DNA of 64,000 bases. Origin: Candidatus Pacearchaeota archaeon. Lineage in GTDB: Archaea > Nanobdellota > Nanobdellia > UBA10117 > JAFCGA01. The translations under genes and the position numbers were made by a program. Below are positions 3,374-57,769 of this stretch, piece by piece. The first letter of the stretch is position 1; every line of letters starts with the position of its first letter. The notes beneath the pieces are model-generated. The model did not search any database. It had not been told where the DNA came from and saw nothing but the letters and a program-made list of their open reading frames with translations. Location of the stretch: contig JAFCGA010000001.1 in NCBI GenBank assembly GCA_017608345.1, positions 33,766 through 97,765 of the forward strand, in the 5' to 3' direction.

Positions 3374-3403
3374 TTATTTGGTCCGAGTATAAGTTTTTTT
3401 GAT

Positions 3404-3567
3404 GATCACTTATTTGTATTTACTCCGTTGTGTTATTTCTGAAGCGGAGCCGAACTTGTTCGGACCAGAAGCGTTAGCTTCTGGGCTTCAGATAGAATCT
3501 TCTTTGGGGCGCGGCGGGAACTTTCTTCTTAAGAAAGGGTCCGCTTTGTATAAACTATCCAGTGATC
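3404..3567. repeat. free-standing copy of the tRNA-intron-like structured element (three-way junction plus Y/R hairpin), bounded by the inverted 7-mers GATCACT/AGTGATC
   Basis: 3438-3492 folds as TCTGAAGC[CCGAAC-TTG-TTCGG][CCAGAAGC-GTTA-GCTTCTGG]GCTTCAGA. The reverse complement of 3495-3544 (GCGGACCCTTTCTTAAGAAGAAAGTTCCCGCCGCGCCCCAAAGAAGATTC) aligns with the tRNA-Pro T-loop insert, including an identical GTTCCCGCCGC. Confidence 0.6.
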
Positions 3568-3686
3568 CTTTACTGTTCTCTCAAACCGCGCAAAGTTTAT
3601 AAAAAATTGAACGTACTATTAGCTATATTAGAGAGGTAACACAGTGAGGGTTCTGTAATTCGACGAGCCCTAGCTTAATATGAAAA

Positions 3687-4880: not shown

Positions 4881-4900
4881 CCAACCCTATTTCTTTGCCA

Positions 4901-5062
4901 TTTTCTTTCTTTTGCAAAACCAGAGCGGAATGAAATTCCGCTTGGCCAACCGGAACTAGTTCCGGTCTGGAGAAAGAATTAGGCGTCCAAAGAAAGAAAA
5001 GCATATTTCTCCGCGACTGCGTCGCGTCAATAATAATCGCTCACTCATCAGTTCGCTCTAGC
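4901..5062. repeat. free-standing intron-like structured element between convergent genes
   Basis: Y-tract 4901-4914 (TTTTCTTTCTTTTG) pairs with R-tract 4988-5001 (CAAAGAAAGAAAAG) around the twin hairpin 4920-4970. That hairpin is about 47/50 identical to the reverse complement of 57276-57325, which lies inside the tRNA-Ala(GGC) D-loop insert. 5036-5062 (CGCTCACTCATCAGTTCGCTC) matches the sense strand of the 26903-26925 element. Confidence 0.65.
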
Positions 5063-5095
5063 GAATCGGGGCGATTCGCGCTTAGAGTGGTTGAG

Positions 5096-5473
5096 TTAGT
5101 TATGTTTTTTTACTCGCAGTTTCCTACTCTTTTTTTGGCTAAGCCAGGAGAACTGTTTTAATAGATTATTTGTAATTTTGCATAGGTTTTGTGGGTCGCT
5201 AGTAATTACGTTTATTTTTGGGAAGTTATCATCACAAGTTGTTATTTCAAGTGCTGCTTCTATTCCGTGTAAGCTTATGAAGTATTGTTTGTGACTAGCG
5301 GAGTATGCATTTACATTTTGAGAGCCTATTTGGTGGGCATTTCTAGATAAAAAGGCATATAACTCAGCGCCTTCGTAATCTTCACAACGTATACCGAACA
5401 GAAGTGATAGTTGATGCATTGGTTTTGTATGACCCCCTAATGTTTTTGAGTAGTATGTTTTCATATAATTCAC
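5096..5473 (-). CDS. hypothetical protein (125 aa), last gene of the NurA operon
   Basis: ORF in the track, on the same strand as and 58 nt downstream of the NurA-like gene. No motif recognised. Confidence 0.4.
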   Translation of the reverse strand: MNYMKTYYSKTLGGHTKPMHQLSLLFGIRCEDYEGAELYAFLSRNAHQIGSQNVNAYSASHKQYFISLHGIEAALEITTCDDNFPKINVITSDPQNLCKITNNLLKQFSWLSQKKSRKLRVKKHN

Positions 5474-25268: not shown

Positions 25269-26066
25269 ATGCAGAGCCCCTTTAATAAACCGCAGAATCC
25301 ATCACATCCTTCTGGCACTGGCAGAATTAAGTGGGAGGTCATTTTCCAGCTGATAAATTTCATACTATTGATAGTAATTGTTTTTTTCGTTATACCTCGG
25401 TCCCAAATATCAACGGAGGATGTGCTTACGGGAAATGCTGCTAAGGTTGAAGTGGTAGAGCCGGTTGAAGAGCCAGAACCTGAGAAAGTGGAGGAACCCG
25501 TAGTAGAAGATAAATCGGGGATGGTTTGCAATAAGCCCTATATCGTTGTAGGCAATGATTGCTGCTTAGATAAAGATGGTAATTCAATATGCGACAAGGA
25601 TGAGACTACCGCAATCTCGTTAACTGCTGAAGATGTCAAAGCTATTGCGTTAGATAGCGCTGAGGAGGAAATAGCTGCTTCTGATTCAGATTGCCATCTA
25701 GCTCATGAGGGTTTTAATCAACCAGACTTTAGTCTGCGATTCGAATTAGGCGAGGCTAAAATAGCGTCGATTAAACGAGAAGTAGATTCAGGTTGGGCAG
25801 TTTTTGAGCTAGTCATACAGCCGACTGAAGAAGGACGACTGCATTGCGATGCTGCAGAGTACTATAATAATGTTCCCATTGAAGAATTTGAAATAGATAA
25901 TATACATACTACTCGAGAAGTCGAGCCAATGGACGAAGAAGGAACGCGACTAGTCAACTATCGCGTGACTTGCTATAACGCTAAAGAGTATGAGTATAAG
26001 GACACCTGCGATACAATAAAGTCTAAATTCAAAAGCGGGACGCTACTTATAGAGTATGAAGATTAA
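25269..26066 (+). CDS. membrane-anchored Cys-rich hypothetical protein (265 aa)
   Basis: N-terminal TM segment FQLINFILLIVIVFFVI, then an acidic linker and a Cys-containing ectodomain. Its stop codon abuts the 3' end of tRNA-Thr. Confidence 0.5.
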   Translation: MQSPFNKPQNPSHPSGTGRIKWEVIFQLINFILLIVIVFFVIPRSQISTEDVLTGNAAKVEVVEPVEEPEPEKVEEPVVEDKSGMVCNKPYIVVGNDCCLDKDGNSICDKDETTAISLTAEDVKAIALDSAEEEIAASDSDCHLAHEGFNQPDFSLRFELGEAKIASIKREVDSGWAVFELVIQPTEEGRLHCDAAEYYNNVPIEEFEIDNIHTTREVEPMDEEGTRLVNYRVTCYNAKEYEYKDTCDTIKSKFKSGTLLIEYED

Positions 26067-26207
26067 GCCCCCAATGGGAGTTGAACCCATGACCTATGGT
26101 TTAATTGGAGCTCCCTTCTTTTCTTTTCCCGAGGGTTTTCTTTTCTTTGGGAAGAAAAGAAAAGGCTCTTACAAAACCATCGCTCTACCAGGCTGAGCTA
26201 TGGAGGC
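26066..26207 (-). tRNA. tRNA-Thr(UGU) with a 68-nt intron at the canonical 37/38 site (26102-26169)
   Basis: The minus strand folds as GCCTCCA TA GCTC AGCCTGGTA GAGC G ATGGT TTTGTA[intron]A ACCAT AGGTC ATGGG TTCAACT CCCAT TGGGGGC T. It is 74 nt after intron removal. Confidence 0.85.
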
Positions 26208-26701: not shown

Positions 26702-26870
26702 TGGACCGACCCGGATTCGAACCGGGGATCCTCGCGATGTAAACGCGATGTCATAACCAGATTGTCTTACTGCACGATTCATATTTTCGAGCGAAGCGAG
26801 CAAGACGCCTTTCTTTTAGCACCTTAGCTTTTCTTTCGCGAAAGAAAAGGCAGTTCTAGACCATCGGTCC
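26702..26870 (-). tRNA. tRNA-Val(UAC) with an insert of about 92 nt in the D-loop
   Basis: The minus strand folds as GGACCGA TG GTC TAGAA[insert]TCTGGTTAT GAC A TCGCG TTTACAT CGCGA GGATC CCCGG TTCGAAT CCGGG TCGGTCC A. Confidence 0.75.
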
Positions 26871-26879
26871 ACTAATTTG

Positions 26880-27068
26880 CTCACGTGGACTTTTGTTCTG
26901 TAGCGAGCTGATGAGCGAGCGTTTATTTCGAAGCTCCGTAGGAGTTGAGCAAACTGCTTCTCTTTGGGGCTACTCAACTTTGTTGAGTCCCCAAACTCGT
27001 TTGGGCTACCTTACCACCTTTCTCTTCGCAAGAGAAAGGGGGCAGCGACCAATCGGTCCACTACTATT
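26880..27068 (-). pseudogene. tRNA-Val-like 5' fragment fused to an intron-like element (leader or pseudo-tRNA)
   Basis: The minus strand starts AGTGGACCGATTGGTC, versus AGTGGACCGATGGTC for tRNA-Val. This is followed by GCTGCC-CCTTTCTCTT-GCGA-AGAGAAAGG, the hairpins CCCAAAC/GTTTGGG and ACTCAAC/GTTGAGT, then CCCCAAAGAGAAGC...CTCCTACGGAGC, which is homologous to the tRNA-Ala(GGC) D-loop insert. I could not build any anticodon or T arm. Confidence 0.35.
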
Positions 27069-27083: not shown

Positions 27084-27091
27084 TTTATAAA
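27084..27091 (-). promoter_or_regulatory. TATA box (TTTATAAA) for the transcript containing the tRNA-like element and tRNA-Val
   Basis: About 22 nt upstream of GTGGACC at 27066. No TATA-like element lies directly upstream of tRNA-Val itself. Confidence 0.45.
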
Positions 27092-31136: not shown

Positions 31137-31547
31137 TTATCTCACCTCAGTCCCGCGGGCCGGAGTTGCACCAGCAGCCTCTCGGTCTACGGCCGAGCGC
31201 TCTTCTAACTGCTCCAACCGTTTCTTATTTCCGAGCGAAGCGAGCAAGACGCCTTTCTTTTGGCATCTTAGCTTTTCTTTCGCGAAAGAAAAGGCAGATT
31301 GAGCTACCGCGGGAAGAATTAATTCACCAGTATGAGTTAGAGAAATTAGCTTACTATCGCCGAAGCTGATTAGTCTCTTATTTCTGAGCTGGCGAAGATT
31401 ATGCCAGCCAGTTGATTTAGGTAAGTTTAGAGAAGCGACAAATTGTGATGCAGTTAGTAAGTCATTATCTGCGATTGCGAATAAAAGCTTACGCTGAAGA
31501 TCAGGTATATTATTAGAAATTAATTCGCAGAGGATACGGATGATCAC
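31137..31547 (-). CDS. winged-helix (HTH) protein ORF whose C-terminal 58 codons run through tRNA-Tyr
   Basis: The first 78 aa (…LTASQFVASLNLPKSTGWHNLRQLRNKRLISFGDSKLISLTHTGEL) look like a wHTH. There is no in-frame stop before 31137. Confidence 0.4.
   Translation of the reverse strand: MIIRILCELISNNIPDLQRKLLFAIADNDLLTASQFVASLNLPKSTGWHNLRQLRNKRLISFGDSKLISLTHTGELILPAVAQSAFSFAKEKLRCQKKGVLLASLGNKKRLEQLEERSAVDREAAGATPARGTEVR
31151..31313 (-). tRNA. tRNA-Tyr(GUA) with an insert of about 87 nt in the D-loop
   Basis: The minus strand folds as CCCGCGG TA GCTC AATC[insert]GAGC G CTCGG CCGTAGA CCGAG AGGCT GCTGG TGCAACT CCGGC CCGCGGG A. The archaeal Tyr identity pair C1:G72 is present. Position 33 reads C rather than U. 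Confidence 0.75.
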
Positions 31548-34426: not shown

Positions 34427-34728
34427 TGGACCGGCCGGGATTTTCTGAAGGACAAATAGACCAAAGTATTTTGGTTTTACCAACTTCAGGGAGGTTGGTA
34501 CACCTTGGTTGGCTATATTTGAGTTGAAGGAACTTCAACTCCAGCCAGACAATGTGCTAGGGGGTCTTGCCCTTACTTTGAACCCGGGGCCTTCTACGTG
34601 CGAGGCAGACGCTCTACCGCTTCAGCAGCGTTTTCTTATTTTCCGAGCGCAAGCGAGAAAGAATTTTTCTTTTTCGCCAACGTTTTTCTTTTGTTAAAAG
34701 AAAAAGGCTGTGGCTGAGCTACCGGCCC
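34427..34728 (-). tRNA. tRNA-Ala(CGC), 302 nt, with a D-loop insert (about 90 nt) and a T-loop insert (about 136 nt)
   Basis: The minus strand folds as GGGCCGG TA GCTC AGCCA[34621-34710]GCGGTA GAGC G TCTGC CTCGCAC GTAGA AGGCC CCGGG TTCAAA[34441-34576]T CCCGG CCGGTCC A. G3:U70 is present, and the gene is 76 nt after removing the inserts. Confidence 0.75.
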
Positions 34729-54846: not shown

Positions 54847-55069
54847 GGGGCTATGGTGTAGCTAGAGCTTAAGTATTGCTTTAGTTCCTACAATGGCTAG
54901 CATCGCAGGTTTGGGACCTGCAGACCCCAGTTCAAAGCGGAGCCTTTTCTTTTGCTAAAAGAAAAGTTCCCGCCGCTCTCCAAAAGAAAAGCGTATTGCT
55001 CGCTTCGCTCGAGAATATTGCCTTTGGCAAGTTAGGAGATGTCGGCACTTGAAAATCTGGGTAGCCCCA
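54847..55069 (+). tRNA. tRNA-Pro(UGG) with a D-loop insert (about 31 nt) and a T-loop insert (about 119 nt)
   Basis: Folds as GGGGCTA TG GTGT AGC[54863-54893]TGGCTA GCAT C GCAGG TTTGGGA CCTGC AGAC CCCAG TTCAAA[54937-55055]T CTGGG TAGCCCC A. It is 73 nt after removing the inserts. Confidence 0.75.
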
Positions 55070-55074
55070 TTGAT

Positions 55075-55213
55075 GCGCCCGTGGTCTAGTGGTACGCGCT
55101 AAAAATCCGTGCACTAAATGACTCAAGCTTGCCAAGCTTGCAACCCGAGTTCAAATTCGGACTGGTTCGAATTACTGCGAGAACTTGTTCGATCGGAAAT
55201 CTCGGCGGGCGCA
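55075..55213 (+). tRNA. tRNA-Gly(GCC) with a D-loop insert (about 24 nt) and a T-loop insert (about 44 nt)
   Basis: Folds as GCGCCCG TG GTCT AGTGGTA[55095-55118]TGAC T CAAGC TTGCCAA GCTTG CAAC CCGAG TTCAAAT[insert]CTCGG CGGGCGC A. It is 71 nt after removing the inserts and starts 5 nt after tRNA-Pro. Confidence 0.75.
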
Positions 55214-55767: not shown

Positions 55768-55974
55768 GGGCCGTTAGCTCAGAGCCTTTTTCTTTCTTTC
55801 CCAAAGAAAGAAAAACCCTCGGGAAAAAGAAAGAACGGGAACGCGAGCAATCTGGTCATATTCCGTCAGGAATATTCCTGGACGGAGTACTGGAAAGAGC
55901 ACTTGGCTCTTAACCAAGGTGTCGAGGGTTCAAAGCTGCCAAATATTAAGCAGTAGAAAATCCCTTACGGCCCG
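55768..55974 (+). tRNA. tRNA-Lys(CUU) with a D-loop insert (about 105 nt) and a T-loop insert (26 nt)
   Basis: Folds as GGGCCGT TA GCTC AG[about 55783-55887]..CTGGAAA GAGC A CTTGG CTCTTAA CCAAG GTGTC GAGGG TTCAAA[55935-55960]T CCCTT ACGGCCC G. TTATAAAT lies 25-32 nt upstream. Confidence 0.8.
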
Positions 55975-57241: not shown

Positions 57242-57587
57242 GGGCCGGTAGTTCAGCCAGCGGATCCCTTGCTCTCCAGACCGGAACAAGTTCCGGTTGG
57301 CCACGCGGAATTTCATTCCGCTTGGTGCAAAGAGAAAGGTCTACGCATCACCCCAAAGAGAAGCGTATTCCTTCGCTCCTTCGGAGCTCAAAAATAAAGA
57401 GATTTGCCTGAAACGGTAGAACGCTACATTGGCAGAGCCTTTTTCTCTTTCCAGAAAGAGAAAAACGTTCGCGAAAAAGAGAAAGCGAACATGGGTTTCA
57501 GACTTGTAGAGGCCCCGAGTTCAAATAGCCTTTCTTTCCTGAATGAAAGAACGAATTTCAGAGGCTAGGAAAATCTCGGCCGGTCCA
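57242..57587 (+). tRNA. tRNA-Ala(GGC), 346 nt, with three inserts: D-loop (about 153 nt), canonical 37/38 (69 nt) and T-loop (about 48 nt)
   Basis: Folds as GGGCCGG TA GTTC AGCC..[insert]..GGTA GAAC G CTACA TTGGCA[57435-57503]T TGTAG AGGCC CCGAG TTCAAA[about 57526-57573]T CTCGG CCGGTCC A. G3:U70 is present, and the gene is 76 nt after removing the inserts. Confidence 0.75.
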
Positions 57588-57683: not shown

Positions 57684-57769
57684 GCCGAGATAGCTCAGCT
57701 GGTAGAGCGCCAGTTTAATAGGCGAATCTCATAAGCTGGAGGTCGGGAGTTCGAGCCTCCCTCTCGGCA
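57684..57769 (+). tRNA. tRNA-Met/Ile2(CAU), elongator type, with a 13-nt insert at the 31/32 boundary
   Basis: Folds as GCCGAGA TA GCTC AGCTGGTA GAGC G CCAGT[TTAATAGGCGAAT]CTCATAA GCTGG AGGTC GGGAG TTCGAGC CTCCC TCTCGGC A. Confidence 0.8.

Follow-up and report, generated by a model that had tools for sequence, protein, structure and literature searches.

How did two unrelated tRNA genes come to carry almost the same insert? The question is raised by the genes for tRNA-Val(TAC) and tRNA-Tyr(GTA) in a stretch of 64,000 nucleotides (nt) from Candidatus Pacearchaeota archaeon (assembly GCA_017608345.1, contig JAFCGA010000001.1, positions 33,766 to 97,765; hereafter the window), each of which is interrupted in its D-loop by an insert with a nearly identical 67-nt body. 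A first-pass annotation had taken this as the mark of recent copying of an intron-like element between tRNA genes. The copying stands in our analysis and its object becomes narrower: the near-identity is best read as a recent exchange of the core between two introns that would already have been resident, and not as a fresh insertion. We consider it likely, taking the explanation as a whole, that the inserts are endonuclease-spliced introns built of a portable core and a host-specific tail, that the core was recently copied, and that both introns belong to a family recognizable by a triad of pyrimidine and purine runs. The more interesting result is the last one: the core is a member of a DPANN-wide family in which three strands co-vary in the way of an intrastrand triplex; the triplex, like splicing and the mechanism of copying, is inferred.

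Direct comparison gave 3 mismatches in 67 positions between 26787-26853 (tRNA-Val) and 31231-31297 (tRNA-Tyr), as first annotated, and the tRNA-sense 67-mer matches the sequence quoted at that time. The differing positions are 26787/31231 (T/C), 26818/31262 (A/G) and 26822/31266 (C/T). By ungapped extension the shared tract grows to 79 nt (26775-26853 against 31219-31297; 74/79 identical, 94%), where similarity ends abruptly and the flanking sequence is unrelated on either side. A 15-mer of the core, expected 0.21 times in the window, is present three times, the third occurrence being a diverged, inverted copy at 54980-55018 within the gene for tRNA-Pro(TGG). This copy, also listed in the first-pass annotation, is real (89-92% complementary to the Val and Tyr copies; nhmmer E=4e-21), and a fourth, previously unlisted, lies in the D-loop intron of tRNA-Ala(CGC) (34621-34708; E=1e-17). 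The observation is far beyond chance. The flanking exons are indeed unrelated, mature tRNA-Val and tRNA-Tyr being 34-54% identical (34% in a multiple alignment of the mature sequences), and intron similarity does not track host similarity: these least similar hosts hold the most similar introns, and the other core-family members in the window are 52-69% identical. Similar introns in unrelated tRNAs and related introns at different positions (after nt 15 in Val and Tyr, after nt 17 in Ala(CGC), at 59/60 in Pro) are the features that mark transposed introns of the Thermoproteales type, and both are seen here.

The inserts behave as introns in silico. Their removal restores canonical tRNA-Val(TAC), tRNA-Tyr(GTA) and tRNA-Pro(TGG), which bears out both the hosts named at first pass and the intron-like nature given to the inserts there, and the same operation yields canonical tRNA-Thr, Ala(CGC), Ala(GGC), Gly, Lys and Met. 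The tract shared by Val and Tyr begins at intron nt 3 in Val and nt 2 in Tyr and leaves out the last 13 and 10 nt of the intron, respectively. Within the 67-mer, positions 26850-26808 hold the triad and positions 26803-26788 a conserved GCTCGCTTCGCTCG block. In both tails, GCAG(T) pairs with (A)CUGC at the 5' end of the same intron, and a 4-mer is the complement of the 5' strand of the host D-stem (AGAC/GUCU in Val, GAGC/GCUC in Tyr). Folding of a Val mini-substrate gave GUCU[AGA]ACUGC...GCAGU(A)AGAC (z=-3.6), in which the 4-bp helix GUCU:AGAC lies between a bulge of 3 nt and a second bulge; the predicted cuts, between AG and A and between AA and U, yield exactly the D-loop AGUCUGGUUA. The Pro T-loop intron folds into a near-canonical bulge-helix-bulge (BHB) motif composed of the T-stem, helix UUCA:UGAA and two 3-nt bulges.

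Other kinds of element find no match in these introns. Around them no Rfam family except tRNA reached the gathering score or E<=10, and at 90-94 nt they fall short of the hundreds of nt expected of self-splicing group I or II introns, whose ribozyme core a covariance model would recognize. The ends of the Val and Tyr introns show neither the terminal inverted repeats nor the direct repeats of miniature inverted-repeat transposable elements and insertion sequences. No C (RUGAUGA) or D (CUGA) boxes of C/D box small RNAs were found in the sense strand of the core, the nearby Rfam C/D matches having E>2 and lying elsewhere. We infer that the Val and Tyr inserts are protein-spliced introns of the BHB type. 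In a separate trial, CGAAAATATGAA was rejected as an internal promoter, being weak compared with the TTTATAAA boxes of this genome.

The tails also bear on the age of the two introns. The tRNA-Tyr(GTA) gene at locus L140, 77% identical to that of the window, has a triad-bearing intron after nt 15 and folds correctly when spliced; its intron ends in ...GAGAGCAG, compared with ...TTGGAGCAG in the window. The tRNA-Val(CAC) gene at locus L169 has the same D-arm and an intron after nt 15 that ends in ...GGACAA, compared with ...AGACAA in the window. In the simplest reading, both D-loop introns would predate this genome, and the near-identity of their cores would have arisen later with the tails spared. 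Core exchange between resident introns fits better than insertion because other metagenome-assembled genomes (MAGs) hold Val and Tyr introns at the same site with similar tails.

The core is further distinguished by the triad that we found near the 5' end of every long element; in the Val/Tyr core it takes up the first 45 nt. It consists of a pyrimidine run (Y), a purine run that is its Watson-Crick complement and forms hairpin 1 with it (R1), and a second purine run (R2). The latter is the parallel complement of Y, and hence the mirror of R1, and not a second antiparallel complement. Parallel and antiparallel matches of R2 to Y were 17/17 and 13/17 in Thr, 14/14 and 11/13 in Lys intron 1, 13/13 and 11/13 in Ala(GGC) intron 2, 11/11 and 10/10 in Ala(CGC) intron 1, 9/9 and 8/10 in Val and Tyr, and 8/8 and 7/8 in an element upstream of tRNA-Val. 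The antiparallel score is thus lower in five of the six triad patterns, and in Ala(CGC) it is perfect but shorter. The block patterns of the runs differ among elements ((4,4,2), (5,3,3), (5,1,3), (5,4), (4,3) and (3,1,2)), and therefore the three strands changed together. When R2 was shuffled, eight elements had P values between 5e-5 and 0.04, and the weak copy in region A had 0.11. In an exact 8-mer scan of the whole window no more than eight loci had such hairpins, each of them within or next to a tRNA gene, with the mirror run downstream on the tRNA-sense strand in 8/8 and on the antisense strand in 0/8; Markov simulations gave 0-1 such loci. In D-, anticodon- and T-loops of tRNAs alike, hairpin 1 follows the 5' splice site at a distance of 1-4 nt.

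In its geometry this arrangement corresponds to a class II purine-motif intrastrand triplex, in which a 5' pyrimidine domain is followed by a purine domain and a 3' reverse-Hoogsteen purine domain (Holder et al. 2015, PMC4666352), and the triad may fold in this way. The class II layout of ITxF and its stem definition (stems of 6-15 nt, mirror purine stem) apply to the triad. For its loop range of 1-6 nt the result is divided: loop 1 measures 3-4 nt, whereas loop 2 has 8-10 nt in the window copies, against 4-7 nt in the majority of DPANN relatives. In bacteria, motifs of this triplex type have been linked to polymerase arrest (PMC4666352), and the dispersed repeat TM_ECO/BoxC has been linked to genomic rearrangement (Holder et al. 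2015, PMC4666352).

Several observations weigh against our explanation and have to be set beside its rivals. As regards splicing, the Tyr junction gave no clean BHB in folding (z=+0.3, ambiguous), the Val BHB is relaxed by an extra A opposite the bulge, the splice junctions are sequence predictions with a tolerance of +/-1-2 nt, and neither the splicing endonuclease EndA nor an RtcB-type ligase was present among the 20 window open reading frames (ORFs) scanned. As regards copying, the basis is a 64-kb window of one genome, and introns with similar tails may stand at the same site in other MAGs through repeated insertion at a favoured position plus constraint from the conserved D-stem, and not through orthology. 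It is rather unlikely, in our estimate, that a whole intron was duplicatively transposed into a recently intron-free D-loop and its tail rebuilt by selection. Transposition on a large scale is accepted in Thermoproteales (PMC4090602, PMC4033280), new sites have evidently been colonized by similar introns (in the Pro T-loop and after nt 17 in the Ala(CGC) D-loop), and a near-identical element is found in the L115 tRNA intron and the L178 Elp3 ORF of different MAGs; however, the unrelated Val and Tyr tails would have required very rapid re-invention while the cores came to differ by ~5%, and introns with similar tails already occupy this very site in the Val and Tyr tRNA genes of other archaeal MAGs. 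An improbable alternative dispenses with recent copying and has old cores held near-identical by purifying selection on a functional RNA or DNA structure. The triad does co-vary and is conserved across phyla, and two putative hairpin 2 substitutions between Val and Tyr keep pairing (G.U to A-U, U.G to C-G), but as covariation the latter are not significant, transitions opposite G or U nearly always keeping pairing. Val and Tyr also agree at loop, linker and A-rich spacer positions, the remaining family members of this genome show differences of 31-48%, and functional constraint alone does not enforce identity because those members are only 52-69% identical. An artefact of assembly or binning, that is a collapsed or chimeric repeat, would be most surprising. 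The source is a metagenome-type contig, and we found no evidence in favour of this idea; the two copies lie 4.4 kb apart on the same strand of one contig in unique flanks, differ at 5 positions in 79 nt, sit each within a complete foldable tRNA gene, and form a repeat shorter than a sequencing read.

For the triad, a role in RNA and not as a DNA triplex is possible and on balance doubtful; it could act as the inner helix of the splice motif, in binding or stabilizing an excised circular intron, or as a pairing switch. The orientation in the sense of the host RNA (8/8 in the window; 40 against 4 elsewhere, among the matches listed below) would suit this role, as would the position of hairpin 1 immediately past the 5' splice site in all three kinds of loop, but the same bias would be expected just as much of the non-template DNA strand. 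The mirror, or parallel-complement, relation plays no role in Watson-Crick folding of RNA, and R2 as an alternative helix always has the C.A mismatches predicted by mirror symmetry. Purine-motif triplexes form in DNA and reportedly not in RNA (cited in PMC4666352), a restriction that tells against an RNA function and also against the triplex we favour. The latter is further weakened by the Val and Tyr elements themselves, in which 10 nt separate R1 from R2, and R2 might lie in a second hairpin loop instead. A pyrimidine-motif triplex, a form available to RNA, could arise from the complementary strand (PMC4666352).

Under the explanation that we prefer, with exchange of cores between resident introns, the 67-mer would form the body of an archaeal tRNA intron whose removal depends on the tRNA splicing endonuclease and an RNA ligase and not on self-splicing. 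The portable core of ~79 nt would comprise the Y/R1 hairpin 2-3 nt past the 5' splice site, the mirror run R2 and the GCTCGCTTCGCTCG block. The host tail of 10-13 nt would close the intron on its own 5' end through GCAG(T) and pair its 4-mer with the host D-stem, building the helix-bulge-helix that the endonuclease presumably cleaves. A recent copying step at the DNA level, between two introns 4.4 kb apart on the same strand, would then have replaced one resident core and left the tails untouched, gene conversion or template switching being the likeliest route. As a working hypothesis, the triplex would form on the single-stranded non-template DNA strand, introns able to form it would be prone to ectopic copying, and the splicing endonuclease would render the copies harmless.

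Relatives of the core were sought in the window using an nhmmer profile built from the Val, Tyr, Pro intron 2 and Ala(CGC) intron 1 copies. This profile recovered its own four members with E values from 1e-17 to 1e-26 and gave weaker matches to the Thr, Lys intron 1, Ala(GGC) intron 1 and Ala(GGC) intron 2 sequences, to the element upstream of tRNA-Val, and to the intergenic positions 4972-5041. All-against-all BLAST of the non-coding regions revealed that modules are shared in mosaic fashion, for example between Thr and Lys intron 1 (86%), Ala(CGC) intron 1 and Ala(GGC) intron 2 (81%), and the Val-upstream element and Ala(GGC) intron 1 (77%), and module matches inside tRNA genes are all tRNA-sense. 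The family to which the core belongs extends over most long introns of this genome and reaches across the DPANN archaea.

Outside the window, we searched one genome per species with a hairpin 1 pattern (GCCTTTTCTTT N3-6 AAAGAAAAG) and obtained at least 119 loci, mostly in MAGs labelled DPANN or related. Among the matches listed, the lineages include Micrarchaeota, Aenigmatarchaeota, Nanoarchaeia/Nanobdellati, Iainarchaeum/Diapherotrites, Woesearchaeota, Forterrea and Altiarchaeota, and the typical form is AAGCC-Y-loop-R1-CCTT-GGG-R2 with an R1-R2 linker of mostly 4-7 nt. For archaeal loci in this set with a strong second purine run, the relation was mirror in 74, direct in 9 and a tie in 17, with many different Y sequences. 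The elements are inserted after ...GGTTCAAA (T-loop, 11 loci), after ...TAGCTCAG or GGTCTAG (D-loop, 8 loci) and in anticodon loops, and a tRNA T-arm is present within 250 nt on the sense strand only at 40 loci and on the antisense strand only at 4. The best outside match to the window profile in the same set (L178, positions 967-1034; E=1.3e-8) contains TCGCTTCGCTC, which is related to the conserved motif TTGCTCGCTTCGCTCG of the window copies. In this Nanobdellati archaeon MAG (JACQKZ010000009.1), a 75-nt triad element at positions 963-1037 lies in frame within an Elp3 gene and adds 25 residues, falling between the residues aligned to positions 166 and 167 of a solved Elp3 structure. A near-identical sequence is a tRNA anticodon-loop intron in another MAG (L115).

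Ribosomal RNA genes carry triad elements as well, namely the 16S (L129, 875-2684) and 23S (L106, 2113-6041) genes of the uncultured archaeon MAG CAZXFI010000001.1. The insertion sites are after ...GACTGAAAC in 16S and after ...TTAAGGTAGCG in 23S, and the two genes are ~330 and ~940 nt longer, respectively, than the Rfam models. Head-to-tail triad units (…GCCTTGGGAAG CCTTTTCTTTT…) were observed at L114, L126, L147, L174, L185 (archaeon isolate SO_2017_SWC_5) and L143, and therefore arrays, not single inserts, occur in some genomes. The same triad layout, sometimes in tandem, was seen in bacterial intergenic DNA of Saccharibacteria (L113, L117, L124, L132, L141, L180, L199), Omnitrophota (L170, L171, L212) and Clostridia (L131, L133, L139, L153) MAGs; some of these bacterial triads may be terminators with a chance purine run. 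Other searches gave no relatives. Exact core patterns in genome and metagenome contigs gave chance matches only, mostly in high-GC bacterial coding sequence, and nhmmer re-scoring of these left no real relative; a scan for the tRNA-Val T-arm plus acceptor found nothing; and four hairpin matches in viral contigs had no mirror run and looked chance-like.

Among the closest known systems are the tRNA introns of Thermoproteales (PMC4090602, PMC4033280). As there, the introns occupy D-, anticodon- and T-loop sites, with several per gene, very similar introns are found in unrelated tRNAs, and splice sites are set by exon-intron pairing and not by intron sequence. In contrast to them, the host is DPANN-like with FtsZ, the long introns (most of 48-156 nt) are of modular build, sharing is confined to the core and tails are host-specific, a triad is present, and the elements also reside in rRNA genes and an ORF of other MAGs. 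With the triplex motifs of TM_ECO/BoxC (PMC4666352) the triad shares the order of Y stem, loop, R stem, loop and mirror R stem, stems of 8-17 nt and a dispersed distribution; it differs in being A/T-rich and not G/C-rich, in lying inside introns of stable-RNA genes with a strong sense bias, and in a second loop of 8-10 nt in the window copies (in most DPANN relatives it has 4-7 nt), and here the triplex is a prediction from sequence. A high intron load, non-canonical positions and several introns per gene recall the tRNA disruption reported in DPANN and Asgard archaea, to judge from the accessible parts of the two papers concerned (Kaneta et al. 2018, PMC5829648; Valentin-Alvarado et al. 2024, PMC11291895): 9/9 tRNA genes of the window are interrupted, compared with 92-95% in Atabeyarchaeia and Freyarchaeia (PMC11291895). 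Those parts link the DPANN intron load to endonucleases of broadened specificity and find it high in lineages whose EndA carries the L3 loop (PMC5829648); they count introns and describe the enzyme, and contain no description of a shared intron sequence family or triad.

In the literature that we covered, which is incomplete, no published description was found of a shared modular family, a core/tail split, a mirror triad or a spread over tRNA, rRNA and ORF, and the intron family of the core, widespread in archaeal tRNA, rRNA and one protein gene, is apparently undescribed. Ever since the Thermoproteales work the multiplication of archaeal tRNA introns has wanted an explanation, and a review gives its mechanism as unknown and presumably DNA-level (PMC4090602). 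The Val/Tyr locus bears on this question as a dated copying event, with cores ~95% identical, sharp borders and untouched host tails, and the mirror triad co-varying in three strands is a physical candidate for the driver of multiplication. Occurrence of the same type of element in many DPANN lineages, in rRNA and in a protein gene opens the idea to comparative genomics and biophysics. We tentatively suggest that DPANN archaea, and possibly some candidate phyla radiation (CPR) and other bacteria, may harbour an undescribed family of mobile inserts that is defined by the triad, can fold into a triplex, colonizes tRNA, rRNA and protein genes, is tolerated thanks to the endonuclease, and spreads via triplex-induced stalling or recombination, with Val/Tyr as a recent event.

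Coordinates of the tRNA genes, introns and intron parts in the window (positions count from the first letter of the window)
Feature	Position	Strand	Remarks
tRNA-Thr(TGT) gene	26066..26207	-	
Thr intron	26101..26168	-	canonical 37/38 site; clearest triad
tRNA-Val(TAC) gene	26702..26870	-	
Val exon 1	26856..26870	-	nt 1-15, GGACCGATGGTCTAG; exon 1 + exon 2 fold in ARAGORN
Val D-loop intron	26762..26855	-	94 nt, after nt 15; predicted junctions +/-1 nt, from mini-substrate fold
Val core tract common with Tyr	26775..26853	-	includes the 67-mer
Val Y run	26840..26850	-	CCTTTTCTTTC; 5' strand of hairpin 1
Val R1	26828..26837	-	GAAAGAAAAG; antiparallel complement of Y run, 10/10
Val R2	26808..26817	-	AAAAGAAAGG; parallel complement of Y run, mirror of R1
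Val conserved motif	26788..26803	-	TTGCTCGCTTCGCTCG; identical in Val, Tyr and Pro copies
Val 3' tail	26762..26774	-	TGCAGTAAGACAA; host-specific
Val exon 2	26702..26761	-	
Intron-like triad element upstream of tRNA-Val	26874..27046	-	flanked by duplicated 5' exon, 27047-27062 and 26859-26873
tRNA-Tyr(GTA) gene	31151..31313	-	
Tyr exon 1	31299..31313	-	nt 1-15, CCCGCGGTAGCTCAA; ARAGORN on spliced form
Tyr D-loop intron	31209..31298	-	90 nt, predicted after nt 15 or 16 (one-T ambiguity)
Tyr core tract common with Val	31219..31297	-	Y 31284-31294, R1 31272-31281, R2 31252-31261, motif 31232-31247
Tyr 3' tail	31209..31218	-	GTTGGAGCAG; host-specific; GAGC complementary to exon D-stem GCUC
Tyr exon 2	31151..31208	-	
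tRNA-Ala(CGC) gene	34427..34728	-	
Ala(CGC) D-loop intron 1	34619..34711	-	93 nt; fourth family member
tRNA-Pro(TGG) gene	54847..55069	+	
Pro T-loop intron	54937..55055	+	119 nt, 59/60; diverged copy; Y 54943-54953, R1 54957-54966, R2 54982-54991, motif 54996-55011
tRNA-Gly(GCC) gene	55075..55213		
tRNA-Lys(CTT) gene	55768..55974	+	
Lys D-loop intron	55783..55889	+	after nt 15; triad
tRNA-Ala(GGC) gene	57242..57587	+	
Ala(GGC) anticodon-loop intron	57435..57503	+	triad
tRNA-Met(CAT) gene	57684..57769	+	

Altogether, manual and in-silico splicing with an ARAGORN check established nine tRNA genes in the window, all of them split, with a total of 15 introns; no intron-free tRNA was found within it. 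The intron sites cluster at D-loop positions 15-20, in the anticodon loop (33/34 and 37/38) and at 59/60 in the T-loop, with three genes (Val, Tyr and Lys) split after nt 15 and five bearing a T-loop intron. On the window, ARAGORN run without introns reported one tRNA and Rfam three; standard tRNA finders missed 6/9 genes and gave the wrong anticodon in two others. This failure of default finders on split tRNAs helps to explain the incomplete tRNA sets reported for DPANN MAGs (PMC5829648). At 57684-57769 (+), ARAGORN called 'Stop(tta)' by default and 'Ile(aat)' in intron mode, and a clean tRNA-Met/Ile2(CAT) fold is obtained once a 13-nt intron at the non-canonical site 33/34 is removed. The protein genes of the window include FtsZ, GluRS, TyrRS, ValRS and a GrpE/DnaJ chaperone cluster, and their best relatives are in Iainarchaeota/Diapherotrites, Woesearchaeota and Nanoarchaeota MAGs (TyrRS with 58-64% identity), on which grounds the host was taken to be DPANN-like. 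No tRNA genes were present near TyrRS relatives of up to 58% identity on genome contigs.

The element upstream of tRNA-Val is flanked by a direct repeat of 15-16 nt, unlike the Val and Tyr introns. The repeat consists of the first 12-13 nt of tRNA-Val and the preceding 3 nt (AGTGGACCGAT(T)GGTC), and its copies are 188 nt apart. The sole TATA box, TTTATAAA at 27084-27091, is 32 nt upstream of the first copy of the Val 5' exon, a spacing as at other tRNA genes. BHB splicing of this element was rejected: the geometry is wrong, since it would require self-pairing of the repeat. The element may be a long leader that RNase P takes off, or what an insertion with a target duplication of 15 nt left behind. 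Two further proposals were discarded: regions A and B as hidden tRNA genes, no acceptor-stem pairing being found, and a hammerhead or C/D box reading of the CTGATGAG blocks (26907-26925 and 5040-5060), with no stem II, no D box, the wrong strand and Rfam E>2.

Three other segments deserve mention. The segment at ~3398-3572 (-) is a probable small RNA gene, with a TTTATAAA box 32 nt upstream, AGT before the start as in tRNA genes, a terminal helix GATCACT/AGTGATC and a module 79% related to the tRNA-Pro T-loop intron; it had no match in Rfam and no tRNA could be assembled from it. A possible C/D box small RNA, with UGAUGA and CUGA 43 nt apart, lies at 3395-3448 (+) and has only weak Rfam C/D matches (E=2-4). 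The stretch that separates ftsZ from the next gene contains, at 4897-5112 (+), a free-standing composite of intron-type modules, closed by a GC hairpin and a T-run; no tRNA exons were detectable in it, and its positions 4993-5057 match the Val-upstream element at 74%. It includes a 50-nt double-hairpin module (4924-4973) that is 96% identical to 57273-57322 in intron 1 of tRNA-Ala(GGC). This module runs opposite to its neighbours, which points to a small palindromic unit having been inserted or inverted at the DNA level.

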